A stretch of 64,000 bases of DNA from Fervidobacterium sp. (GCA_049970055.1 JBMFNR010000001.1:160001-224000), one strand, 5' to 3'. Positions 10,154 to 60,353 are shown, counted from the first letter of the stretch. A program made the numbers and translations. The notes: generated by a model not told the origin, from the letters alone.

Positions 10154-10283
10154 TGTGAATCCCCCTCTTTTCAATTTCAAATTCCCTCGGCTTTCTCACT
10201 TTTTTACATTTTATAACTTTTTATCTATTCTACCACAAGTTTTGTGCTTATTAAAGTTCTCAGATGAAATTATAATTGAGTAC

Positions 10284-14897: not shown

Positions 14898-15112
14898 GAA
14901 TGTTTCCCCCCTTCTGAATAGATTTAGAATACACCATTACCTACTAAATTATAGCACACAATAAAAGAAAAGATGCAACATATTTTTAGGTTTTTTTATA
15001 ATTCAGAAAGTACAATATAATTTTTAATAATTTTTAAAATTTCATGAATTTTAACAGGTTACGATTTATTTTAAAAATCTCGGAAAAAATTTGAATATAA
15101 CAAACATATTTA

Positions 15113-31025: not shown

Positions 31026-31754
31026 TTAATTCCTGTTAAGTACACTGATAACCATTGAGACCTTTTGAATAAATTCGTTTCTTAGTGGTTTTACATTTCC
31101 AAAGGAAGAGAGCAATTCCTCTTCGAACAATGGAATTTTTGTTATTCCAGCGTTAGTGTTGATTTCAATAAATTCAACCGTTGCACCAACATTTTCACCC
31201 AGGCTTGAAGAGAACATAATTCTATCTTGTGATAAGTTAGTTGATATTAGATCGGTAGTAGCGTATGTATAGTATCCCGTTATTTGGAATTCTTTATTCA
31301 TAACATCCACTTTAGCCTCAGTTATGTATAACTTGTTATCTTTTAAAGCAAATGCCACAAGATAAAGGGGTATAAATATGCTTGGTACGCTTCTTACAGA
31401 TTTTACATAAAATTCCTCAGCCATCCACGGTCTAAACGAAACAAAGTCCGCGATCAGTGTTTTTTCATTTTTTGTAATATATGCTATAAAATCCTTCCTG
31501 ACTTCTTCCAAATTAGATAGAAACGTTTTTGTACTTGTGCGTTTCACAAAATACATTATTATAATGACGAACGAGTATATTATTAATAATGCTGCGATAG
31601 TATTTTTAACAAATATTATTAAGAGATAGAAATCCCTAACATATTTGATCTGAGCTAGAAAGTCGAAGTTAATGATCAAAAGTATTATCCCAAAAATTAA
31701 CAGTACCAAATCCTTAGCAGGAAATTTTTTAAAAAAATCTCTATCCGATTTCAT
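31026..31754 (-). CDS. Hypothetical membrane protein
   Basis: 242-aa ORF with two N-terminal TM segments and a GGGGGG RBS; co-directional with xseAB. Confidence 0.7.
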   Translation of the reverse strand: MKSDRDFFKKFPAKDLVLLIFGIILLIINFDFLAQIKYVRDFYLLIIFVKNTIAALLIIYSFVIIIMYFVKRTSTKTFLSNLEEVRKDFIAYITKNEKTLIADFVSFRPWMAEEFYVKSVRSVPSIFIPLYLVAFALKDNKLYITEAKVDVMNKEFQITGYYTYATTDLISTNLSQDRIMFSSSLGENVGATVEFIEINTNAGITKIPLFEEELLSSFGNVKPLRNEFIQKVSMVISVLNRN

Positions 31755-31772
31755 GGAATCCCCCCACTAATA

Positions 31773-37591: not shown

Positions 37592-37870
37592 TTATTTCTT
37601 ATTTGCAAGAATCTCTTTAATTTTCTCTTCAACACCTGATTTTTTACCGGGTAAGCACTTATCTGGTTTATCGCCTTTGACTATTGCCTTTGCGTATCCT
37701 TCACATCCTGGATAACCGCATGCGCCACAATTTATACCTGGAAGAGCTTCGAGAATAAGTTTAACTGTCGTGTCCTCTTCAACTTTAAACTTTTCACTTG
37801 TATAAGAAAGAAAAAGCCCAAAAGCAAAACCAATACTCCCAAGAAGTATCGCAGAATAAACGACCACCAC
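37592..37870 (-). CDS. rnfB: Short RnfB-like membrane Fe-S protein
   Basis: One TM helix, then KFKVEED..LPGINCGACGYPGCEGYA..KCLPG; likely GTG start at 37870 after GGAGGTG. Confidence 0.85.
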   Translation of the reverse strand: MVVVYSAILLGSIGFAFGLFLSYTSEKFKVEEDTTVKLILEALPGINCGACGYPGCEGYAKAIVKGDKPDKCLPGKKSGVEEKIKEILANKK

Positions 37871-37945
37871 ACCGGTCACCTCCGAAAGTAGTAAAATCAT
37901 AAATTCGCATTTTGTGTTGAAAATACTAATAGTAACGCTATGGAT

Positions 37946-37974
37946 ATTATATATCAATTTGAAAATAAATGCAA
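37946..37974 (-). promoter_or_regulatory. Putative sigma-A promoter of the rnfB-dprA-panC operon
   Basis: TTGCAT-N17-TATAAT on the minus strand. Confidence 0.65.
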
Positions 37975-38093
37975 ATACAAACTTTGGCTTATCTAAAAAA
38001 GCGCATCTTGGAAATATTAATTTAAGTTTATTCGTTTCAAATGTTTAACATTCAAAGGCTTGAAAATTTACAGATTGCATAGTACAAATGTAG

Positions 38094-38180
38094 TGCAGCG
38101 ACCCCCCTATCCCCCCTTGGAAGAGTTGAAAAAACTTTTTCAAGTTACCCCCGGGTGTAAACCGGGGGATTTTTGTTTTT
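38094..38180 (+). ncRNA. Candidate C-rich small RNA or leader RNA
   Basis: Two C6 tracts, an 11-bp hairpin with G-U pairs (38117-38143) and a GC-rich terminator with U tail, set in AT-rich intergenic DNA. 5' end estimated. Confidence 0.5.
38148..38180 (+). terminator. Intrinsic terminator upstream of pelG
   Basis: CCCCCGG-gtgtaaa-CCGGGGG-ATTTTTGTTTTT, with no protein gene ending in front of it. Confidence 0.8.
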
Positions 38181-38220
38181 ATGAGATTGTGTGATATAAT
38201 TTCTAATATCAGTAAATACT

Positions 38221-38258
38221 TTAATGAACACTTTAATTATTAATGAACACTTTAATTA
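38221..38258 (+). repeat. Perfect 2 x 19-bp tandem repeat in the pelG 5' region
   Basis: TTAATGAACACTTTAATTA at 38221-38239 and 38240-38258. Confidence 0.9.
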
Positions 38259-38282
38259 TTTTAAGAAGGCGTGGGAGTATCC

Positions 38283-39719
38283 ATGGCTGGTATTGGGTTT
38301 GAATTAAATAAATTGCTTAAGCGAAACTCATTTTTCTCAGAAGCGTTTGCATTTTTCTACTCAGCTAACATATCCGCAGGACCGTGGATAGTCTCTTCCA
38401 CCATAATGTTTCTAATTCAAACATACATACCTCAAAAACACATACCTTTTTTGATTTCCGGTATTATTTACACATTCATATTTTCGACAATCTTATTTGG
38501 AAGTGTTTCAACATCGGTTACACGTTATCTTTCGGACCTTATATACAAAAAGCAATTTGCAGAAATATATAATTTGTACACTTCTTCGGCGGGATATGCC
38601 TTTACCTCATCAGGTATATTTTTGATATTCTTTTTTATTGTAAATAAAATAACTGAATGGCAAAAGATAATACTCTTTTCCTATTCATTAACTGCACTTT
38701 CCGTAATATGGGTACAAGTTATATTTGTCTCTGCGATAAGAAGATTCATGCCTGTGATCCTAAGTTTTTTGACAGGAGGGAGTTTAAGCTTATTTTTGAC
38801 ATTGCATCTCTATCGTACAAAAAACGAATATTACGCTTACGCTGGATACAATGTAGGGTTAATGTTTATTATGGTAATCTTACAACTTTTCATCAGAAGA
38901 TTTTTGTACACAGGAGAATTTGATGATACTGGTAAAATTAAAGACGAAAAACCATATAGCGGAAATCAAAAAAAAATTCCTCTTTTCATTACATCAGTTA
39001 AAAAGTACAAAAAGCAAGCAATATCAGGTACTTTTACATACATGGCAGCTTGGATTGACGATTTCATTGCATGGGTTTATTTTCGTTACAGTATATCAAA
39101 AGGATTTATATTTGCACCACAGTATGATATACCGATGTTCATATCTTATCTTTTCATAATCCCGACGTTATCATTGTTTGTACTCAACTTAGAAACTGAG
39201 TTTTACACCTACTACAGGATATTTTACAAATCTATAGAAGAAAATAGAACGTTACGTTTTATTGAGTTGAGTAAACAAAACCTCGATGAAAGTCTTAAAT
39301 CTTCAACGAAATTAATCGTCGCGGTTCAATTTGCATTTATGCTTGCGGGATTGATACTTTCCAAGAGTTTGGCCGAGTTACTGAGATTCAACAATTACGG
39401 ACTTATGGCTTTGAGGGTTGGAATTATAGGGGCCGCAGCCAATGGTGTTTACCTTTATATTTCCTTGATAGCACACTATTTTGATCTTCCAGATATTCCG
39501 TTAAAATCTTCTATTTTAGCATTTTCAGTAAATCTTATTATATCATCATTAACTATTCCAAAGATACCCGGTGTAGGTTTTCTCGCTGGTTTCATTATCG
39601 CAGATATTTATTCTTTTATCTCATTTAGTAAAATTTACTCTTCATTGCTTCTGTTTGAGTTCTCAAGAAATAGATTATCAATGCCGAAGAGAGAGGTAAT
39701 CGTCCATGAGAATAAGTAG
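38283..39719 (+). CDS. pelG: Pel exopolysaccharide transporter PelG
   Basis: Diagnostic N-terminus MAGIGFELNKLL, SAGPW, VTRYLSDLIY, WIDDFIAW, YDIPMFISYL, LETEFY; polytopic. Confidence 0.92.
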   Translation: MAGIGFELNKLLKRNSFFSEAFAFFYSANISAGPWIVSSTIMFLIQTYIPQKHIPFLISGIIYTFIFSTILFGSVSTSVTRYLSDLIYKKQFAEIYNLYTSSAGYAFTSSGIFLIFFFIVNKITEWQKIILFSYSLTALSVIWVQVIFVSAIRRFMPVILSFLTGGSLSLFLTLHLYRTKNEYYAYAGYNVGLMFIMVILQLFIRRFLYTGEFDDTGKIKDEKPYSGNQKKIPLFITSVKKYKKQAISGTFTYMAAWIDDFIAWVYFRYSISKGFIFAPQYDIPMFISYLFIIPTLSLFVLNLETEFYTYYRIFYKSIEENRTLRFIELSKQNLDESLKSSTKLIVAVQFAFMLAGLILSKSLAELLRFNNYGLMALRVGIIGAAANGVYLYISLIAHYFDLPDIPLKSSILAFSVNLIISSLTIPKIPGVGFLAGFIIADIYSFISFSKIYSSLLLFEFSRNRLSMPKREVIVHENK

Positions 39720-40947
39720 GTGGAAGAACTCTATTAAGGAATTTTTTGAATTCTTTATAACAGCCGTATCCAGTGCTCCTAAGTCAACTATTACTTGGTT
39801 GATTGAATACATCCTCGTCGTATCAATTGTATATCTCATGTTTCAATTCTCATTTATTAGACTTGACATAACTATCATTCTGTTGCTAGGTACGGTGTTT
39901 ATTTGGTCTTCACGATATGGGTTGTTCGCTTTTATTGTGACAATTTCTATCTTCGAATTGATCTTTTCTTATATTTGCAAGTCAAATTCTATTTCGTTTT
40001 CAAAGAGTCTAACAATAATATTCTCTATCGGATTTGGACTTGTAACAGGGGTTATAGGTGAGATATTAAATAAGAAAATTAGAACGACGGAAAATGAAAA
40101 CACAAAGTGCAGGATGGAAAATGTAGAACTGCGTGGTCAAATAGATAAATTGAAAACTATTATTGACCAATTAGAACTAAGAGTATATTTTGAAGGACAA
40201 GGCATGATAAACTTACTAGAAAAGTTACAAGAATTGGAGATATTAGACCTTGATGAGATGCTTACCCGATCCGTGGAGATAATTGCCGATTTCTTTGGAC
40301 TTAAAAATTTGCACCTATATAAAAATGACAATTACTTTCTTAGATACGTTGCTGGTGTTGGTCAGAAGCGACTGCCAAATTCGTTTGAGCCAAAGATTTC
40401 AAAGGTAATATCAGGCGCTATTGAAAACGGTTATGCTTCTTTGCCAGGTGTCATTCTTGAAGATAATTTGGAACAATTCGAGCCTTGGTTTGCTGTTAGT
40501 GTTGGAAAAGGTGAAAACACATTTGGAGTATTAATAGTGGACGATATTGAACCTGAAAAATTTTCTCAAACTTTGATTTTATATATGCACGCCATAGCAT
40601 CCTGGCTTGGCGCGAATATTAAGATTATTACTGAGCAGAGCCAACTTCTAGAACAAAAGTACAAAAATCCTGATGGAACGTGGAAAGAGGAGTATTACTT
40701 ACAAAAAAAGAAAGTTTTACAAAAGAGACAGGAGAGGTTTGGTACACCGTATCAAGAACTATGTATCATATATCCAAAGCATCTACACCTTTCTATCATT
40801 AAAGAGTTTAGAAATTCTGATATTTTTATGGCCAATCAGGTCAATGATCAATTTAGGTTGAATGTATTATTAGCTGTTTGTGATGAGATTGGCAAGAAAA
40901 AAATATTGGAGAGGTTGATAAGAAAATATGAAATTGAGGTATGCTGA
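39706..40947 (+). CDS. pelD: PelD-like membrane protein (TM, coiled coil, GAF-like, degenerate GGDEF with RxxD)
   Basis: About four TMs including SRYGL; coiled coil LRGQIDKLK..LELRV; GAF-like region; EFRNSD I-site; overlaps pelG. Confidence 0.7.
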   Translation: MRISRWKNSIKEFFEFFITAVSSAPKSTITWLIEYILVVSIVYLMFQFSFIRLDITIILLLGTVFIWSSRYGLFAFIVTISIFELIFSYICKSNSISFSKSLTIIFSIGFGLVTGVIGEILNKKIRTTENENTKCRMENVELRGQIDKLKTIIDQLELRVYFEGQGMINLLEKLQELEILDLDEMLTRSVEIIADFFGLKNLHLYKNDNYFLRYVAGVGQKRLPNSFEPKISKVISGAIENGYASLPGVILEDNLEQFEPWFAVSVGKGENTFGVLIVDDIEPEKFSQTLILYMHAIASWLGANIKIITEQSQLLEQKYKNPDGTWKEEYYLQKKKVLQKRQERFGTPYQELCIIYPKHLHLSIIKEFRNSDIFMANQVNDQFRLNVLLAVCDEIGKKKILERLIRKYEIEVC

Positions 40948-41848
40948 AAAGTATGTTAGAGCGAAGAGTTACCACATTCTAGTTAGTGCAACAATCGCTT
41001 TTTTAGTTGTCGTAAATGTTATTTGTGTAGTAGTTTATGGCTTAAGATTTCAAAATTTTATAGTTTTCGCAGTTTCTGTGATTTTGTACTATCTTGAAAG
41101 GCGAAATATTCCGGATACGTTGGTCTTCGTAATGTCTTATCCACTTTCTTGGGTTTATTTACTCCCGATAAAAAACGAAGAAATAGAGGATTTTTTCAAC
41201 ATCCCCATACCACCTGAGATCAACGTGAAAATTGACGAAAATGCGATAAATGTATTACCAATCAAAACCGTATTGGCAACTGGGAGTGTTCAAGAAAAAA
41301 AACTGATCACGAAAGATATATTTGCGCAAGTTACAAAGGGAATTAACATAGAACAAAACATGAAGTATCTTCGCCAGCTAATCCGTGACCCGCACATGGA
41401 TGTTCAGCTTTACGCTGAACAAACGCTGGAAGATATTGAAAGTTATTTTGAAAACCTAATAACTAAAATAAAAAATGAAAATACCATTTATTCATGCGTT
41501 GTTATTTATAATTACCTCCGAACTGACATTCCTCGTGGAATTGTAAAGAGTGACTTTGCTAATCTATTGCGAGAAAAAATAAAAAGGGTAAGTTCTCGAG
41601 TGCCTGCTTATTTCGAGATTATGTATTACTTGACAGGCGATATAAACTATCTTTTGGAAAGTTTCAAGAAAACAGGGAACATACAACATCTCAGATTGTA
41701 CGTATTTGAAAAGCTAAAACTCAGAGATTACAACGAAGTAAAAATACTCATTCAAACTTATTCTAAATCTCTTTTATGCAACGATACAACTTTGGAAGAT
41801 TTGGCAGTGCAAAAAGTAAATGGGAGGCACGAGCCAAATGTTAAATAA
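40928..41848 (+). CDS. pelE: PelE-like protein (TM segments plus HEAT/TPR-like helices)
   Basis: N-terminal TMs; LPIKTVL..GSVQEKK..YLRQLIRDPHMDVQLYAEQTLEDIE resembles the PelE core; overlaps pelD. Confidence 0.62.
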   Translation: MKLRYAEKYVRAKSYHILVSATIAFLVVVNVICVVVYGLRFQNFIVFAVSVILYYLERRNIPDTLVFVMSYPLSWVYLLPIKNEEIEDFFNIPIPPEINVKIDENAINVLPIKTVLATGSVQEKKLITKDIFAQVTKGINIEQNMKYLRQLIRDPHMDVQLYAEQTLEDIESYFENLITKIKNENTIYSCVVIYNYLRTDIPRGIVKSDFANLLREKIKRVSSRVPAYFEIMYYLTGDINYLLESFKKTGNIQHLRLYVFEKLKLRDYNEVKILIQTYSKSLLCNDTTLEDLAVQKVNGRHEPNVK

Positions 41849-46981: not shown

Positions 46982-48640
46982 TCATTTTTCTTGAACGTTC
47001 TCTGTATTTTTACCAAACTTTGTTATAAAGTCTTTGAACATACTAACTATTAAATCCCTTCTATACTGTGCAAAGCACCTAAGCCATTCGCTCTCATTCT
47101 TCCAAGTTTCCAATTCTGGTTTGCCCCACCTTGCAGAATGGCGTACGATTTCATCTTTTAAATCCTCGATTCTTCTTTCAACTATTTTTTCAAACCTTTC
47201 TTCTGTAAATATGTTATTTAGTATGTAGTAGAAGCGGTTTATGAACTTTACCTTAAATTCGGTGTTTTCAAGTAATTTGCGTAAAAGCAATGTTGCTTCA
47301 TCGACTGTTGTCCAAGGGATCTCGGGATCACCATACACTGCAATCCGTATTGTATTGTGCTCAGGGACCCATAACGCAAGGTCCATATCGTACATCATCC
47401 AGCGCCATTTGCCATCTCCATATTTGTTTTCTTCGGGTTTTAGCACTCTCCACATGCGTTCATTATTACCAGGCCAATCTCTATTGGCAGTTAAGATTTC
47501 CGCTATCTTAAAGTCTATAAAACTGTCTATATCTATAACCTGGCACACCTTTTGATAATTAGCCTTGATCGATAAATCACTATTTTTCACAAAATTTATC
47601 AGATCAACAAAACTTTGTTGATCGCCTTCTTTTCCATCTTGAATCGACATATCATAGTTTATTATAACAGTATTTTTTTCATTTACACCGTATTTAATTT
47701 GTAAGTATCTTTGATCATAGTACTCCATTAAATAAGAAATTCCCCAGTATTCTCCATTTATGTAATGAACAAGAGGATAGTTATCTTGTGTATCAAAATT
47801 AAGTTCTTTAAAAACTTCCTGTGCAATCGAATCACGCATGTACGTTCCTTCCCAATCGTTGCCGGCATTTCTCAATAAAAGCTTCTTGTAACCTACTCTA
47901 CCAAAAAACGGATACGCAAATTGCTTTTCGGAATTCCTCGCGTAAAGTCTTATAGATTTTATAGGCAAACTACGTGTAAATTCTCCGTGTATGCGGATTC
48001 CTATTTGTGTTCTGTATTTCAACTTACCATCTTCAAAATACTCCATTATTGCAGGTCTTTCAGATGCATCGCCTCGTTGTTGATAATTCCCAGTCCAATA
48101 AGGATTTGATGGATCAAACGTCTTTCCGGGTACGTAGATACCTTTTTCATCGTCAAATAAATTCTCCGGGTCAGTAATTATTGAGAGAACCGGCAATTTG
48201 TGAGTAATTCCTATAAAATAACTCCTAACAGCTGAATCGATGATTTTTCCATCTTTAAGTTCGATAATTCTTAAAATGGTCGCTTTGTCAAAAGTTCCAG
48301 TTGGTGCCCTCCACAATGGTGACGTTGGAATATACATATACGTGTTGTCATACTTCTTTGAAATAACCAACGGTGAGGAATATTTGTACGTGTTTTTACT
48401 GTCGATACGTGGTGTGGTGCCATCAAGTGTGTAATACACTTCCCCATTAACTGACGAAGTTATTATAACTACTATAGATGAATCATAAAAACCTGACTCG
48501 TGAGATATGATCAGTTGTGGAAAGGTTGTTGGCATGATTAAAAACGTGAAAAACAAAGTCATGATTCGAATTTTCAATTTAGTTTCCCCCAGTTTTATCA
48601 CTGCAAACTTATTATTTGTACGCTTTAATCCAAAAAACAT
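46982..48640 (-). CDS. CotH kinase-family protein with N-terminal chitobiase-C/FN3-associated domain
   Basis: SGFY..YYTLDGTTP, GIRIHG..KSIRLY, LRNAGND, YINGEYWG, NRDWPGNN, WRWMMYDMD; start uncertain. Confidence 0.88.
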   Translation of the reverse strand: MFFGLKRTNNKFAVIKLGETKLKIRIMTLFFTFLIMPTTFPQLIISHESGFYDSSIVVIITSSVNGEVYYTLDGTTPRIDSKNTYKYSSPLVISKKYDNTYMYIPTSPLWRAPTGTFDKATILRIIELKDGKIIDSAVRSYFIGITHKLPVLSIITDPENLFDDEKGIYVPGKTFDPSNPYWTGNYQQRGDASERPAIMEYFEDGKLKYRTQIGIRIHGEFTRSLPIKSIRLYARNSEKQFAYPFFGRVGYKKLLLRNAGNDWEGTYMRDSIAQEVFKELNFDTQDNYPLVHYINGEYWGISYLMEYYDQRYLQIKYGVNEKNTVIINYDMSIQDGKEGDQQSFVDLINFVKNSDLSIKANYQKVCQVIDIDSFIDFKIAEILTANRDWPGNNERMWRVLKPEENKYGDGKWRWMMYDMDLALWVPEHNTIRIAVYGDPEIPWTTVDEATLLLRKLLENTEFKVKFINRFYYILNNIFTEERFEKIVERRIEDLKDEIVRHSARWGKPELETWKNESEWLRCFAQYRRDLIVSMFKDFITKFGKNTENVQEK

Positions 48641-53994: not shown

Positions 53995-54060
53995 GACCAA
54001 AAGAAAGGCGTTATAAAATCAAAACTAATTCAATACAAGTTATCAACAGGGGGAAAAGCA

Positions 54061-58211: not shown

Positions 58212-60353
58212 TTATTGAACAATTGTTTTTTCTAAATATTCGCTCTTTTTCACAAGTAATCTGAGTAATCCAAATATCGTAAGTATTATTATTATCAACG
58301 TTGATGAGAGAACACTTGCTAGTCCAAATCTTAAATTTTCTGAAAAATTATAAATTAGCATTGTTATGTGATACCATTTTGCAGATATGAGAAATACAAC
58401 AGCACTAACAGCAGTCATTGATCTTACGAACGTATACGAAAGGCTCGAAATGAATGCTGGTCTTATGAGTGGTAAGATTATTGTAGAGAACACAGTTTGT
58501 GGATTTGCGCCAAGGTTTTGTGCTGCCTCCTCAATTGATGCATCTATCTGCTTTAGCGTTGCGACACCCCCCTCGACCCCCACGGGTAATTCCCTTATAA
58601 CATAGTTGATAACGATAATAGCAGCCGTTCCAACTAAGATAATAGGAGGCTTGTTAAAAGCAATTACATAGCTAATTCCTATCAATGTGCCAGGTATGGA
58701 GAATGGTAGTAGCACGAGTCCTTGAAGAAGTTTTTTCCCGGGAAATTTTTTTCTGACAATCAAAAATGCAACTACCATAGAAAAGACTCCGGCTATTGGC
58801 ATAGCTACAATTGCAAGTAATGTTGTATCCATAAGTGCATCTTTTCCACGTTGCAATGCTTCCTTTATATTTGCGGTAGTAAAGGTGTAGTCAATTCCCC
58901 AGTTTTTGACGAAGCATCCCATAAATATCGTTGAGTAAAGTCCTAATAAGAATATCGATATCAAATACACTAATACGGTAAGGATAGCCCTTGTTTTAGG
59001 ACTAACTATTTCAACTATTCTACCGCTTGGTTTACCCGTTACGGTTACATAAGATTTTTTGTTGACTACATACCTTTGTAAATAGAAAGCAGTCAGTGTG
59101 GGAAGCAACAAAAGAAGTGACAGAGCAGCTCCTCTGTCCAATCTATTCATACCGGTGACTTCTAGGTAAGACGTGACAGAAAGCACGTTGAACTTCCCGC
59201 CAAGCATTAACGGGTTTGCGAAGTCTGCTATAGAATTTGTAAAAACTAAAAGCCAAGAGCTAAGTAATCCAGGTATAGAAAGTGGTAAAGTAACAGTAGA
59301 AAAGACTTTCAATCTGCTTGCACCAAGGTTCATGGAAGCTTCTTCCAAAGTGCTATCTATTGATTCCAGCACACCAACCATAGTTAGGTATGCTATTGGA
59401 AACATTCCCATTGTTTGAGCTATGACAAGCCCATCAAGGCCGTAAATGTCCCAGTTGATTTTTAGAAGTTGCTTTGTAATCAAACCATTTGATCCAAAAA
59501 GAAGAATCAAAGATAGGGTTAACGAGAATGGTGGTGATATGACAGGTAATGTAGCCAAAGTTGAAATGAACCGTTTGCCTTTGATACTTGTCCTGGTTAC
59601 AATAAAAGCGAACAAAAACCCAATTATTGTTGAGATTGTAGCTGTTAAAGTACCAAGTAGAATGCTGTTCAAAAATGCCGTTATATAACTTTTTTCGATT
59701 AAAATTGATTTCCAAACATCGAGTGTAAATCTACCTTCCTTTATTAATGTCAACCGTGCGGCTTCGTACAAAGGATAGGCAACAAATACAAGAACTACGA
59801 CAAACGTTACGATTATAGCATAAGTGGTTACTGAATCAACCGAAAATGTTGCTATTGAAAACCCAGTTATAAGTAATAGAAAAATTAAGACAAACATTAT
59901 GTCTATTGTTTGTGCTAGCTTTATTATGTCTGAAGCATCGTGAAGTTGAACCATCACGGCTTTAACTTCGTAATCTTTGACAATAGGTGTGAAGATAGCA
60001 AAATATTTTTTACCATTAATAGTTAACATTTTTGATGATGTATATATTTCCTCATAAATTGCATGCTCTTCTCCGTAAGAAAAGTCTGGCAATTGCCTTA
60101 CAAGTTTTCCGATACCATTAGCGCTTTCTTTTTGGTTTCCTTCAAAATCGTAAATATAATATTCCATATCAGGATAAGTTTTTTCAGGAACTTGGAGACC
60201 CATACTGGCTATTGAATTTGCAAGCTTAGTCAAATTCTCCCGCGTAATGCGGGAGAATTCGTTTTTTATAGTTGTTCTAACCCAAAAGAGAATTACAAAG
60301 AGTATTAGTCCAATCGCCATGAGCTTAACTATTTTCCAATTTCTTTGTTCCAT
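58212..60353 (-). CDS. FbpB/AfuB-type ABC permease with an extra N-terminal TM-Cache-like-TM module
   Basis: Two EAA loops (LEEASMNLGAS; IEEAAQNLGAN) and YVTVTGK; 713 aa with about 170 extra N-terminal residues. Confidence 0.88.
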   Translation of the reverse strand: MEQRNWKIVKLMAIGLILFVILFWVRTTIKNEFSRITRENLTKLANSIASMGLQVPEKTYPDMEYYIYDFEGNQKESANGIGKLVRQLPDFSYGEEHAIYEEIYTSSKMLTINGKKYFAIFTPIVKDYEVKAVMVQLHDASDIIKLAQTIDIMFVLIFLLLITGFSIATFSVDSVTTYAIIVTFVVVLVFVAYPLYEAARLTLIKEGRFTLDVWKSILIEKSYITAFLNSILLGTLTATISTIIGFLFAFIVTRTSIKGKRFISTLATLPVISPPFSLTLSLILLFGSNGLITKQLLKINWDIYGLDGLVIAQTMGMFPIAYLTMVGVLESIDSTLEEASMNLGASRLKVFSTVTLPLSIPGLLSSWLLVFTNSIADFANPLMLGGKFNVLSVTSYLEVTGMNRLDRGAALSLLLLLPTLTAFYLQRYVVNKKSYVTVTGKPSGRIVEIVSPKTRAILTVLVYLISIFLLGLYSTIFMGCFVKNWGIDYTFTTANIKEALQRGKDALMDTTLLAIVAMPIAGVFSMVVAFLIVRKKFPGKKLLQGLVLLPFSIPGTLIGISYVIAFNKPPIILVGTAAIIVINYVIRELPVGVEGGVATLKQIDASIEEAAQNLGANPQTVFSTIILPLIRPAFISSLSYTFVRSMTAVSAVVFLISAKWYHITMLIYNFSENLRFGLASVLSSTLIIIILTIFGLLRLLVKKSEYLEKTIVQ

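Follow-up and report, generated by a model that had tools for sequence, protein, structure and literature searches.

The window analysed here is a 64,000-nt stretch of Fervidobacterium sp. DNA, in which a spacer of about 400 nt separates a leftward operon from a rightward pelG-like gene. The leftward operon begins with a short rnfB-type gene, followed by dprA, panC and a GH31 glycosidase gene (Pfam, NCBIfam). Its promoter has both hexamer regions invariant in an alignment of five species. The pelG cluster (38283-41848) starts with pelG and also contains genes for a GAF-domain protein and for a 306-aa protein without assignment; no glycosyltransferase adjoining pelG is found in this interval with Pfam/NCBIfam. 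Between the two units lies a C-rich element (38094-38180, plus strand) in which a twin C6 tract and a 12-bp hairpin precede a terminator with a 7-bp stem of GC pairs only and a U tract. The features of the region are as follows.

37592 to 37873, minus strand: short rnfB-type Fe-S protein gene (Pfam FeS PF04060; NCBIfam TIGR01944 rnfB, 83.4 bits)
37975 to 37946, minus strand: promoter of the rnfB-type/dprA/panC operon, TTTGCA-18-TATAAT (promoter scan, 10/12 matches)
38032 to 38050, plus strand: conserved motif TCGTTTCA-N4-TTTAACA, upstream of the -35 box (five-species alignment)
38059 to 38088, plus strand: predicted promoter of the element, with -35 TTGAAA at 38060-38065, a 17-nt spacer and -10 TACAAA at 38083-38088
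38095 to 38116, plus strand: predicted 5′ single-stranded seed region, consisting of GCAGCGA, C tract 1 (38102-38107), UAU and C tract 2 (38111-38116)
38116 to 38127 paired with 38133 to 38144, plus strand: hairpin 1 (RNAfold), 12 bp with two G-U pairs and the loop GAAAA
38148 to 38180, plus strand: intrinsic terminator, CCCCCGG (38148-38154) pairing with CCGGGGG (38162-38168), U tract 38169-38180
38192 to 38200, plus strand: predicted extended -10 promoter of pelG, TGaTATAAT
38283 to 39719, plus strand: pelG-like exopolysaccharide exporter gene (Pfam PelG PF16933, E = 5.7e-102), the downstream neighbour of the element

The twin C tract, the most conspicuous of the conserved features, is read as ACCCCCCTATCCCCCC at 38101-38116. 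It belongs to a 5′ region that is invariant in 5/5 sequences and stays unpaired in the minimum free energy fold from 37 to 80 C, with a mean probability of being unpaired of 0.93 for tract 1 and 0.76 for tract 2 at 37 C, and of 0.79 and 0.72 at 70 C. The plus strand folds with -29.2 kcal/mol and z = -2.88, and 3/200 shuffled sequences fold equally well (RNAfold); the minus strand gives z = -1.17, with 25/200 shuffles equally good. The minimum fold is the same at every temperature from 37 to 80 C. A sequence-only reading of this DNA had placed all features of the element at coordinates that direct inspection confirms. It described an 11-bp hairpin with three G-U pairs, where RNAfold gives 12 bp and two such pairs, G38120-U38140 and G38123-U38137. 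It was right that these pairs work on the plus strand only: on the minus strand they turn into C-A mismatches and the stem drops to 7 bp.

The terminator, whose 5′ arm forms a third C tract, is called by a terminator scan with 7 pairs, 7 of them GC, and a 7-nt loop, then ATTTTTGTTTTT / ATTTTTGTTT. A GC stem-loop directly 5′ of a U tract on the transcribed strand is the arrangement by which intrinsic terminators are recognised, and it is retained in 5/5 sequences. That this terminator has no gene before it, as had been noticed, is borne out by the upstream plus-strand ORFs, which are only 44-aa frames lacking protein-level conservation. Only the plus strand suits the G-U pairs, the U tract and the promoter.

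Related loci were fetched with PelG as the query, which yielded seven loci (L001-L007). Four are from Fervidobacterium (F. islandicum and three Fervidobacterium MAGs), with PelG proteins 65-70% identical to that of the window, and three (L005-L007) are from more distant Thermotogota MAGs, with PelG 37-51% identical. The element occurs at the same place upstream of pelG in 4/4 of the other Fervidobacterium loci. Across the five sequences 50/51 positions of 38094-38144 are identical, the sole difference being an extra A in the hairpin loop of the window (GAAAA, against GAAA in the four relatives). Over the roughly 4.4 kb aligned for the five species, no invariant stretch is longer than the two in the element, of 35 and 15 nt, which are separated only by this 1-nt indel. 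The next one measures 10 nt and lies where the rnfB-type gene starts, and the coding DNA of pelG, dprA and panC has none longer than 8 nt; the spacer around the element is hardly alignable among the five species. All 12 pairs of hairpin 1 are identical in 5/5 sequences, and so are the letters of the terminator stem, while the terminator loop is different in every lineage. A covariation analysis, proposed with the original reading, found that 0/17 predicted pairs vary (five sequences from one genus), so that the structure is argued from thermodynamics and conservation. It is the conservation, not the fold or the matches to ribosome-binding sites (RBSs), that puts the element beyond chance, and the locus very probably holds a functional plus-strand RNA element of some kind.

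Differences in the flanks follow species groups, with L001 and L002 in one group and L003, L004 and the window in the other, which on reading of the alignment favours vertical descent over recent transfer. Upstream of pelG in the three distant Thermotogota loci the element is missing (3/3); there pelG follows a same-strand gene, in an operon. A covariance model built from the five sequences and run over the window and L001-L007 (105,956 nt) finds only the five syntenic copies, at 104-111 bits. No further copy appears in this DNA, distant loci included, the next best hit having 11.3 bits and E = 0.48. The plasmid and phage collections contain no match to 38060-38205 (blastn, distant mode). The element had been read as an undescribed Thermotogae sRNA of about 90 nt. 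Its C tracts and hairpins are conserved in 4/4 Fervidobacterium relatives, and promoter, body and terminator are present in 5/5 sequences and match no Rfam family; the attribution to Thermotogae, however, is too wide as far as tested, because the element is found in Fervidobacterium only and is absent at pelG in 3/3 distant loci.

Transcription of the element would start from a sigma-70-type promoter. The -35 box TTGAAA lies within CTTGAAAnTTTAC, which is invariant in the five species, and the -10 box sits at the same columns in all of them, reading TACAAA, CAAAAT, GATAAT, TATAAA and TATAAA. The imperfect promoter TTGAAA-N17-TACAAA first noticed at 38060-38088 is thus upheld, with the -35 and the position of the -10 retained in 4/4 relatives. 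A consensus promoter scan does not call TTGAAA-N17-TACAAA because it demands a T at the end of the -10, which TACAAA does not have. Promoters of T. maritima are described as having sigma-70-type -35 and -10 boxes, a 17-bp spacer and a transcription start site 7 bp past the -10, with extended -10 promoters as the rule (PMC3636130). The 7-bp rule would place the start of the element at about G38095, one base past the onset of invariance at 38094. Farther upstream, the motif TCGTTTCA-N4-TTTAACA has columns 38032, 38034-35, 38037-39 and 38045-50 invariant inside an otherwise unalignable spacer. The window contains no second copy of it, allowing up to two mismatches. It may be a regulator (transcription-factor) site or an UP-like element for the sRNA promoter.

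On the other side of the terminator, TG.TATAAT is invariant in 5/5 sequences amid diverged surroundings. The distance from the terminator stem to TGnTATAAT is 26-28 nt in all five species, and the terminator U tract occupies the place of the -35 of the pelG promoter; the start site of pelG would lie at about 38207. With this invariant motif between the terminator and the gene, pelG would not need the upstream promoter. The conserved upstream promoter and the pelG promoter past the terminator together make the element read as a transcription unit of its own, of about 81-86 nt. In the predicted 5′ UTR of pelG in the window (38221-38260) there is also a perfect tandem repeat, 2.1 copies of the 19-nt unit TTAATGAACACTTTAATTA, which sits between the pelG promoter and the pelG RBS. 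The repeat is missing from the four Fervidobacterium relatives, whose pelG UTRs are shorter, and could reflect a recent duplication or form paired operator sites.

The element has no Rfam family. The Rfam/Infernal scan that had been suggested as a check returned only four tRNAs at gathering thresholds over the whole window, and an E-value scan of 37850-38320 gave eight weak matches, none near its gathering score and none to a riboswitch or leader family. The only notable score in this 471-nt scan belongs to anti-hemB (Burkholderia RNA 7, RF02837), with 24.6 bits and E = 0.0012 at 38101-38176 on the plus strand. The two share their layout, with a 5′ part rich in C and U, then a hairpin, then a GC-rich terminator, but 24.6 bits is far below the gathering score of 49.5 and the element does not form the model's first hairpin. 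This match is a resemblance of layout and composition, not membership.

Two groups of sRNAs offer closer parallels in how such an RNA could work. In RsaE, unpaired C-rich motifs bind Shine-Dalgarno sequences and block the initiation complex, and binding of such sequences extends to kindred sRNAs of staphylococci (PMC2790875). Like RsaE/RoxS, the element would be a short RNA with its own (here predicted) promoter, a stable intrinsic terminator and high conservation across species, and it carries several unpaired C-rich motifs in its most conserved part, as described for RsaE (PMC2790875), with probabilities of being unpaired of 0.72-0.93. It differs in having C6 runs in a 5′ single strand, where RsaE has UCCC in loops and linkers. 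In contrast to the RsaE layout described in the same study (PMC2790875), it has no 5′ hairpin, its first 21-22 nt being single-stranded and its hairpin central. RsaE/RoxS are found in Bacillales and the element in another phylum, and the 471-nt scan gives no RsaE match even at E values up to 10. The earlier comparison with an RsaE/RoxS-type C-rich anti-Shine-Dalgarno seed thus stands in the sense of "works like", given the unpaired conserved C tracts, but not in the sense of membership.

The 6C sRNA of Actinobacteria recognises G-rich RBSs, among them AGGGGGG of panD, by forming multiple G-C pairs, and does so without a chaperone (PMC6486639). Both RNAs have two runs of about six cytosines as their working part (predicted for the element), and the window holds G-rich RBSs of the kind targeted by 6C, such as AAGGGGGGA before the FN3 gene. 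The C runs of 6C lie in hairpin loops, whereas those of the element lie in an unpaired 5′ tail and its hairpin 1 has a GAAA(A) loop; neither the gathering nor the E-value scan matches the element to 6C. Moreover, 6C belongs to high-GC hosts, and the element is set in intergenic DNA that is A+T-rich on reading.

Candidate partners of the C tracts are found among the RBSs of the window. G runs of five or more occur in the RBSs of six genes: groES, a pfk-like gene, the FN3 gene, the gene at 31026-31754, CotH and ddl. They contrast with the GGAGG type of RBS seen, for example, before the rnfB-type gene, and are located as follows.

1126-1130, 10161-10165, 14906-14911, 31760-31765, 48586-48590 and 54049-54053: G runs of 5-6 in RBSs

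The C tracts find their longest complements upstream of the FN3 gene (9 nt, 14905-14913) and upstream of the gene at 31026-31754 (8 nt, 31758-31765). Both had been pointed out in the first reading and both are real, but matches of this kind are no commoner than expected by chance: the window contains 7 complementary 8-mers, whereas 100 first-order Markov simulations gave 12.6 on average and 91 of them reached the observed count.

A search of the window for the strongest partner predicted at 70 C leads elsewhere, to -18.6 kcal/mol at 58567-58581 on the minus strand. This site lies deep inside a two-domain ABC permease gene (ORF 58212-60353), where GGGGG-TCGA-GGGGGG mirrors the twin C tracts. 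It is rejected as evidence and is likely a coincidence: glycine codons explain the double G tract, the pattern at up to three mismatches is expected 0.22 times per window, and 105/210 permutations of the 5′ 7 nt matched the apparent 4-bp extension. The rnfB-type gene is a weak candidate, with background fractions of 0.02-0.09. For the 5′ region of pelG the duplexes rank among the best 1-6% of background in 4/5 species and at 36% in L004. In L003, positions 1912-1926 cover pelG codons 2-6, and GGGATAGGG at codons 3-5 (Gly-Ile-Gly) is a perfect 9-nt complement of the centre of the twin C tract. The same site in the other four species has 7/9 matches, because wobble letters differ. Read across the species, the wobble letters required for pairing are present at 7/15 positions; they are not maintained, and pelG is discounted as a cis target.

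Taken together, the conserved unpaired C6 tracts, the precedent of RsaE and 6C, the G-run RBSs and the 9- and 8-nt matches make a trans-acting, RBS-occluding sRNA the best explanation of the element, a prediction to which we give a probability of about 0.5. The element would be a separate small-RNA gene running from 38095 to about 38176-38180 on the plus strand, conserved in the genus Fervidobacterium and transcribed from its own promoter TTGAAA-N17-TACAAA. Its strong intrinsic terminator would stop the RNA just before the extended -10 promoter of pelG. The predicted product has three parts, an unpaired 5′ region with two C6 tracts and UAU between them, the 12-bp hairpin and the terminator hairpin. 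The C tracts would pair in trans with G-rich stretches of mRNAs, forming duplexes of G-C pairs only that could stay stable at 65-80 C. RBSs of the GGGGG type are the best candidate targets, and pairing there would block translation initiation, as in RsaE/RoxS and 6C.

The element could instead act in cis, as a leader or attenuator of pelG, with transcripts from upstream being either terminated or extended into the gene. A factor would release the GGGGG arm, which could then join C tract 2 and so extend hairpin 1 into an antiterminator; alternatively, transcription that crosses the element and ends within the pelG promoter would modulate that promoter by occlusion. The element adjoins pelG in 5/5 Fervidobacterium sequences at the near-constant distance given above, and a GAF-domain protein is among the downstream genes. 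ATCCCCC (38109-38115) is, as first noticed and now confirmed by reading, the exact reverse complement of GGGGGAT (38164-38170) in the terminator 3′ arm. When the terminator 5′ arm is blocked, the best fold has a C tract paired with GGGGG; stacking of this helix on hairpin 1 is seen for L003 and L004 at either temperature, and for the window at 70 C. An invariant terminator stem with a varying loop is also what would be expected if the arms had a second partner. Terminator/antiterminator leaders likewise have a terminator 3′ arm that can pair with an upstream tract beside a hairpin, but here a conserved promoter intervenes between terminator and gene, no aptamer is recognisable, and the alternative helix is weak and not maintained. 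The alternative folds that had been suggested thus exist, but only with the terminator 5′ arm forbidden, and they are weaker by 5-6 kcal/mol at 37 C and by about 4-5.5 kcal/mol at 70 C. Their A-U extension is gone in L001 and L002 (GGGGGTA) with no compensating change (2/5 sequences). An attenuator also leaves the invariant 22-nt 5′ tail preceding C tract 2 without a role, the two Rfam scans match no riboswitch or leader family, and in 3/3 distant loci pelG lies inside an operon without the element. The weak, unmaintained alternative fold and the invariant predicted promoter TGnTATAAT (5/5 sequences) make a switch gating Pel expression, the other possibility raised from the sequence, unlikely and less likely than an sRNA.

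An RNA read by a protein, as a sponge or as the subunit of a ribonucleoprotein in which C tracts and hairpin are recognised by the protein and not by mRNAs, is somewhat less probable still. Invariance extends to all 50 shared positions, loop and both arms of hairpin 1 included, which goes beyond what seed pairing requires, and no compensatory change is seen although the neighbouring proteins have diverged by 30-35%. Against this, no candidate protein is identified, and the element has one copy of each motif pair whereas known sponge RNAs carry many motif copies.

It is quite improbable that the element works as DNA, as an operator array or as a C-rich/G-rich non-B structure controlling two diverging promoters. 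Its place in a divergent promoter region would suit such a function, as would the C6/G6 tracts, which on reading are unusual in a spacer otherwise poor in G and C; only eight CCCCCC runs occur in the 64 kb, all on the plus strand. However, the invariant block begins at the expected transcription start and ends at the terminator on one strand, the G-U pairs assign the hairpin a strand, the rnfB-type promoter lies about 120 nt away and is conserved separately, and we know of no precedent for an invariant operator of 50 nt. A small protein gene can be dismissed: one plus-strand frame (40-46 aa, containing QRPPYPPLEELK) is open across the element in 5/5 sequences, but the 1-nt loop indel shifts the frame of the window relative to the four relatives, the C-terminal halves are unrelated and differ among the relatives too, the shared codons show no synonymous change while the flanking genes are saturated, the sole start, the TTG within the -35 box, has no conserved Shine-Dalgarno sequence, the stop lies past the terminator in four sequences (the L003 frame has not closed where the stretch read ends), no protein with three shared 5-residue words is found among 5.8 billion clusters (only 24-77 aa searched), and there is no Pfam match.

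The trans-acting sRNA itself has to account for hairpin 1 and the terminator stem, every letter of which is invariant, more than seed pairing requires. This suggests a further partner or an alternative fold, and the constant distance to the pelG promoter is a hint of coupling in cis. A fuller reading, which we offer tentatively and regard as rather unlikely as a whole, would make the element the first regulatory sRNA of Thermotogota that acts by base pairing, with a twin C6, G-C-only seed adapted to 65-80 C, a regulon of mRNAs with GGGGG-type RBSs, coupling to pelG and a hairpin with a second partner. If it were true, the candidates for the regulon in the window would be groES, the phosphofructokinase-like gene, the large FN3 surface protein and ddl. 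The terminator built into the pelG promoter would couple synthesis of the RNA to that of the Pel-type exporter, and the invariance of the hairpin would mean a second partner, protein or ligand.

The element would be a new RNA family of a known kind and not a new kind. Since C-rich seed sRNAs are familiar from Firmicutes and Actinobacteria, where they are well known, the finding is unsurprising in this respect. To our knowledge, regulatory sRNAs are almost unknown in deep-branching thermophiles. Table 1 of a 2022 review gives one annotated sRNA for the whole phylum Thermotogae (PMC9029176), and the annotation reported in a T. maritima transcriptome study comprises only Rfam-type RNAs (PMC3636130). 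No description of the element was found in a limited selection of the literature on small and regulatory RNAs of Fervidobacterium, Thermotoga and Thermotogae. The element is a defined and very conserved candidate for testing. If expressed, it would offer a handle on RNA-RNA regulation at 65-80 C, where short G-C-only seeds and G-rich RBSs are the features to be expected, and it would carry C-rich seed sRNAs into a distant phylum. Lying against a Pel-type exporter promoter, it also makes a link to the control of biofilm formation testable.
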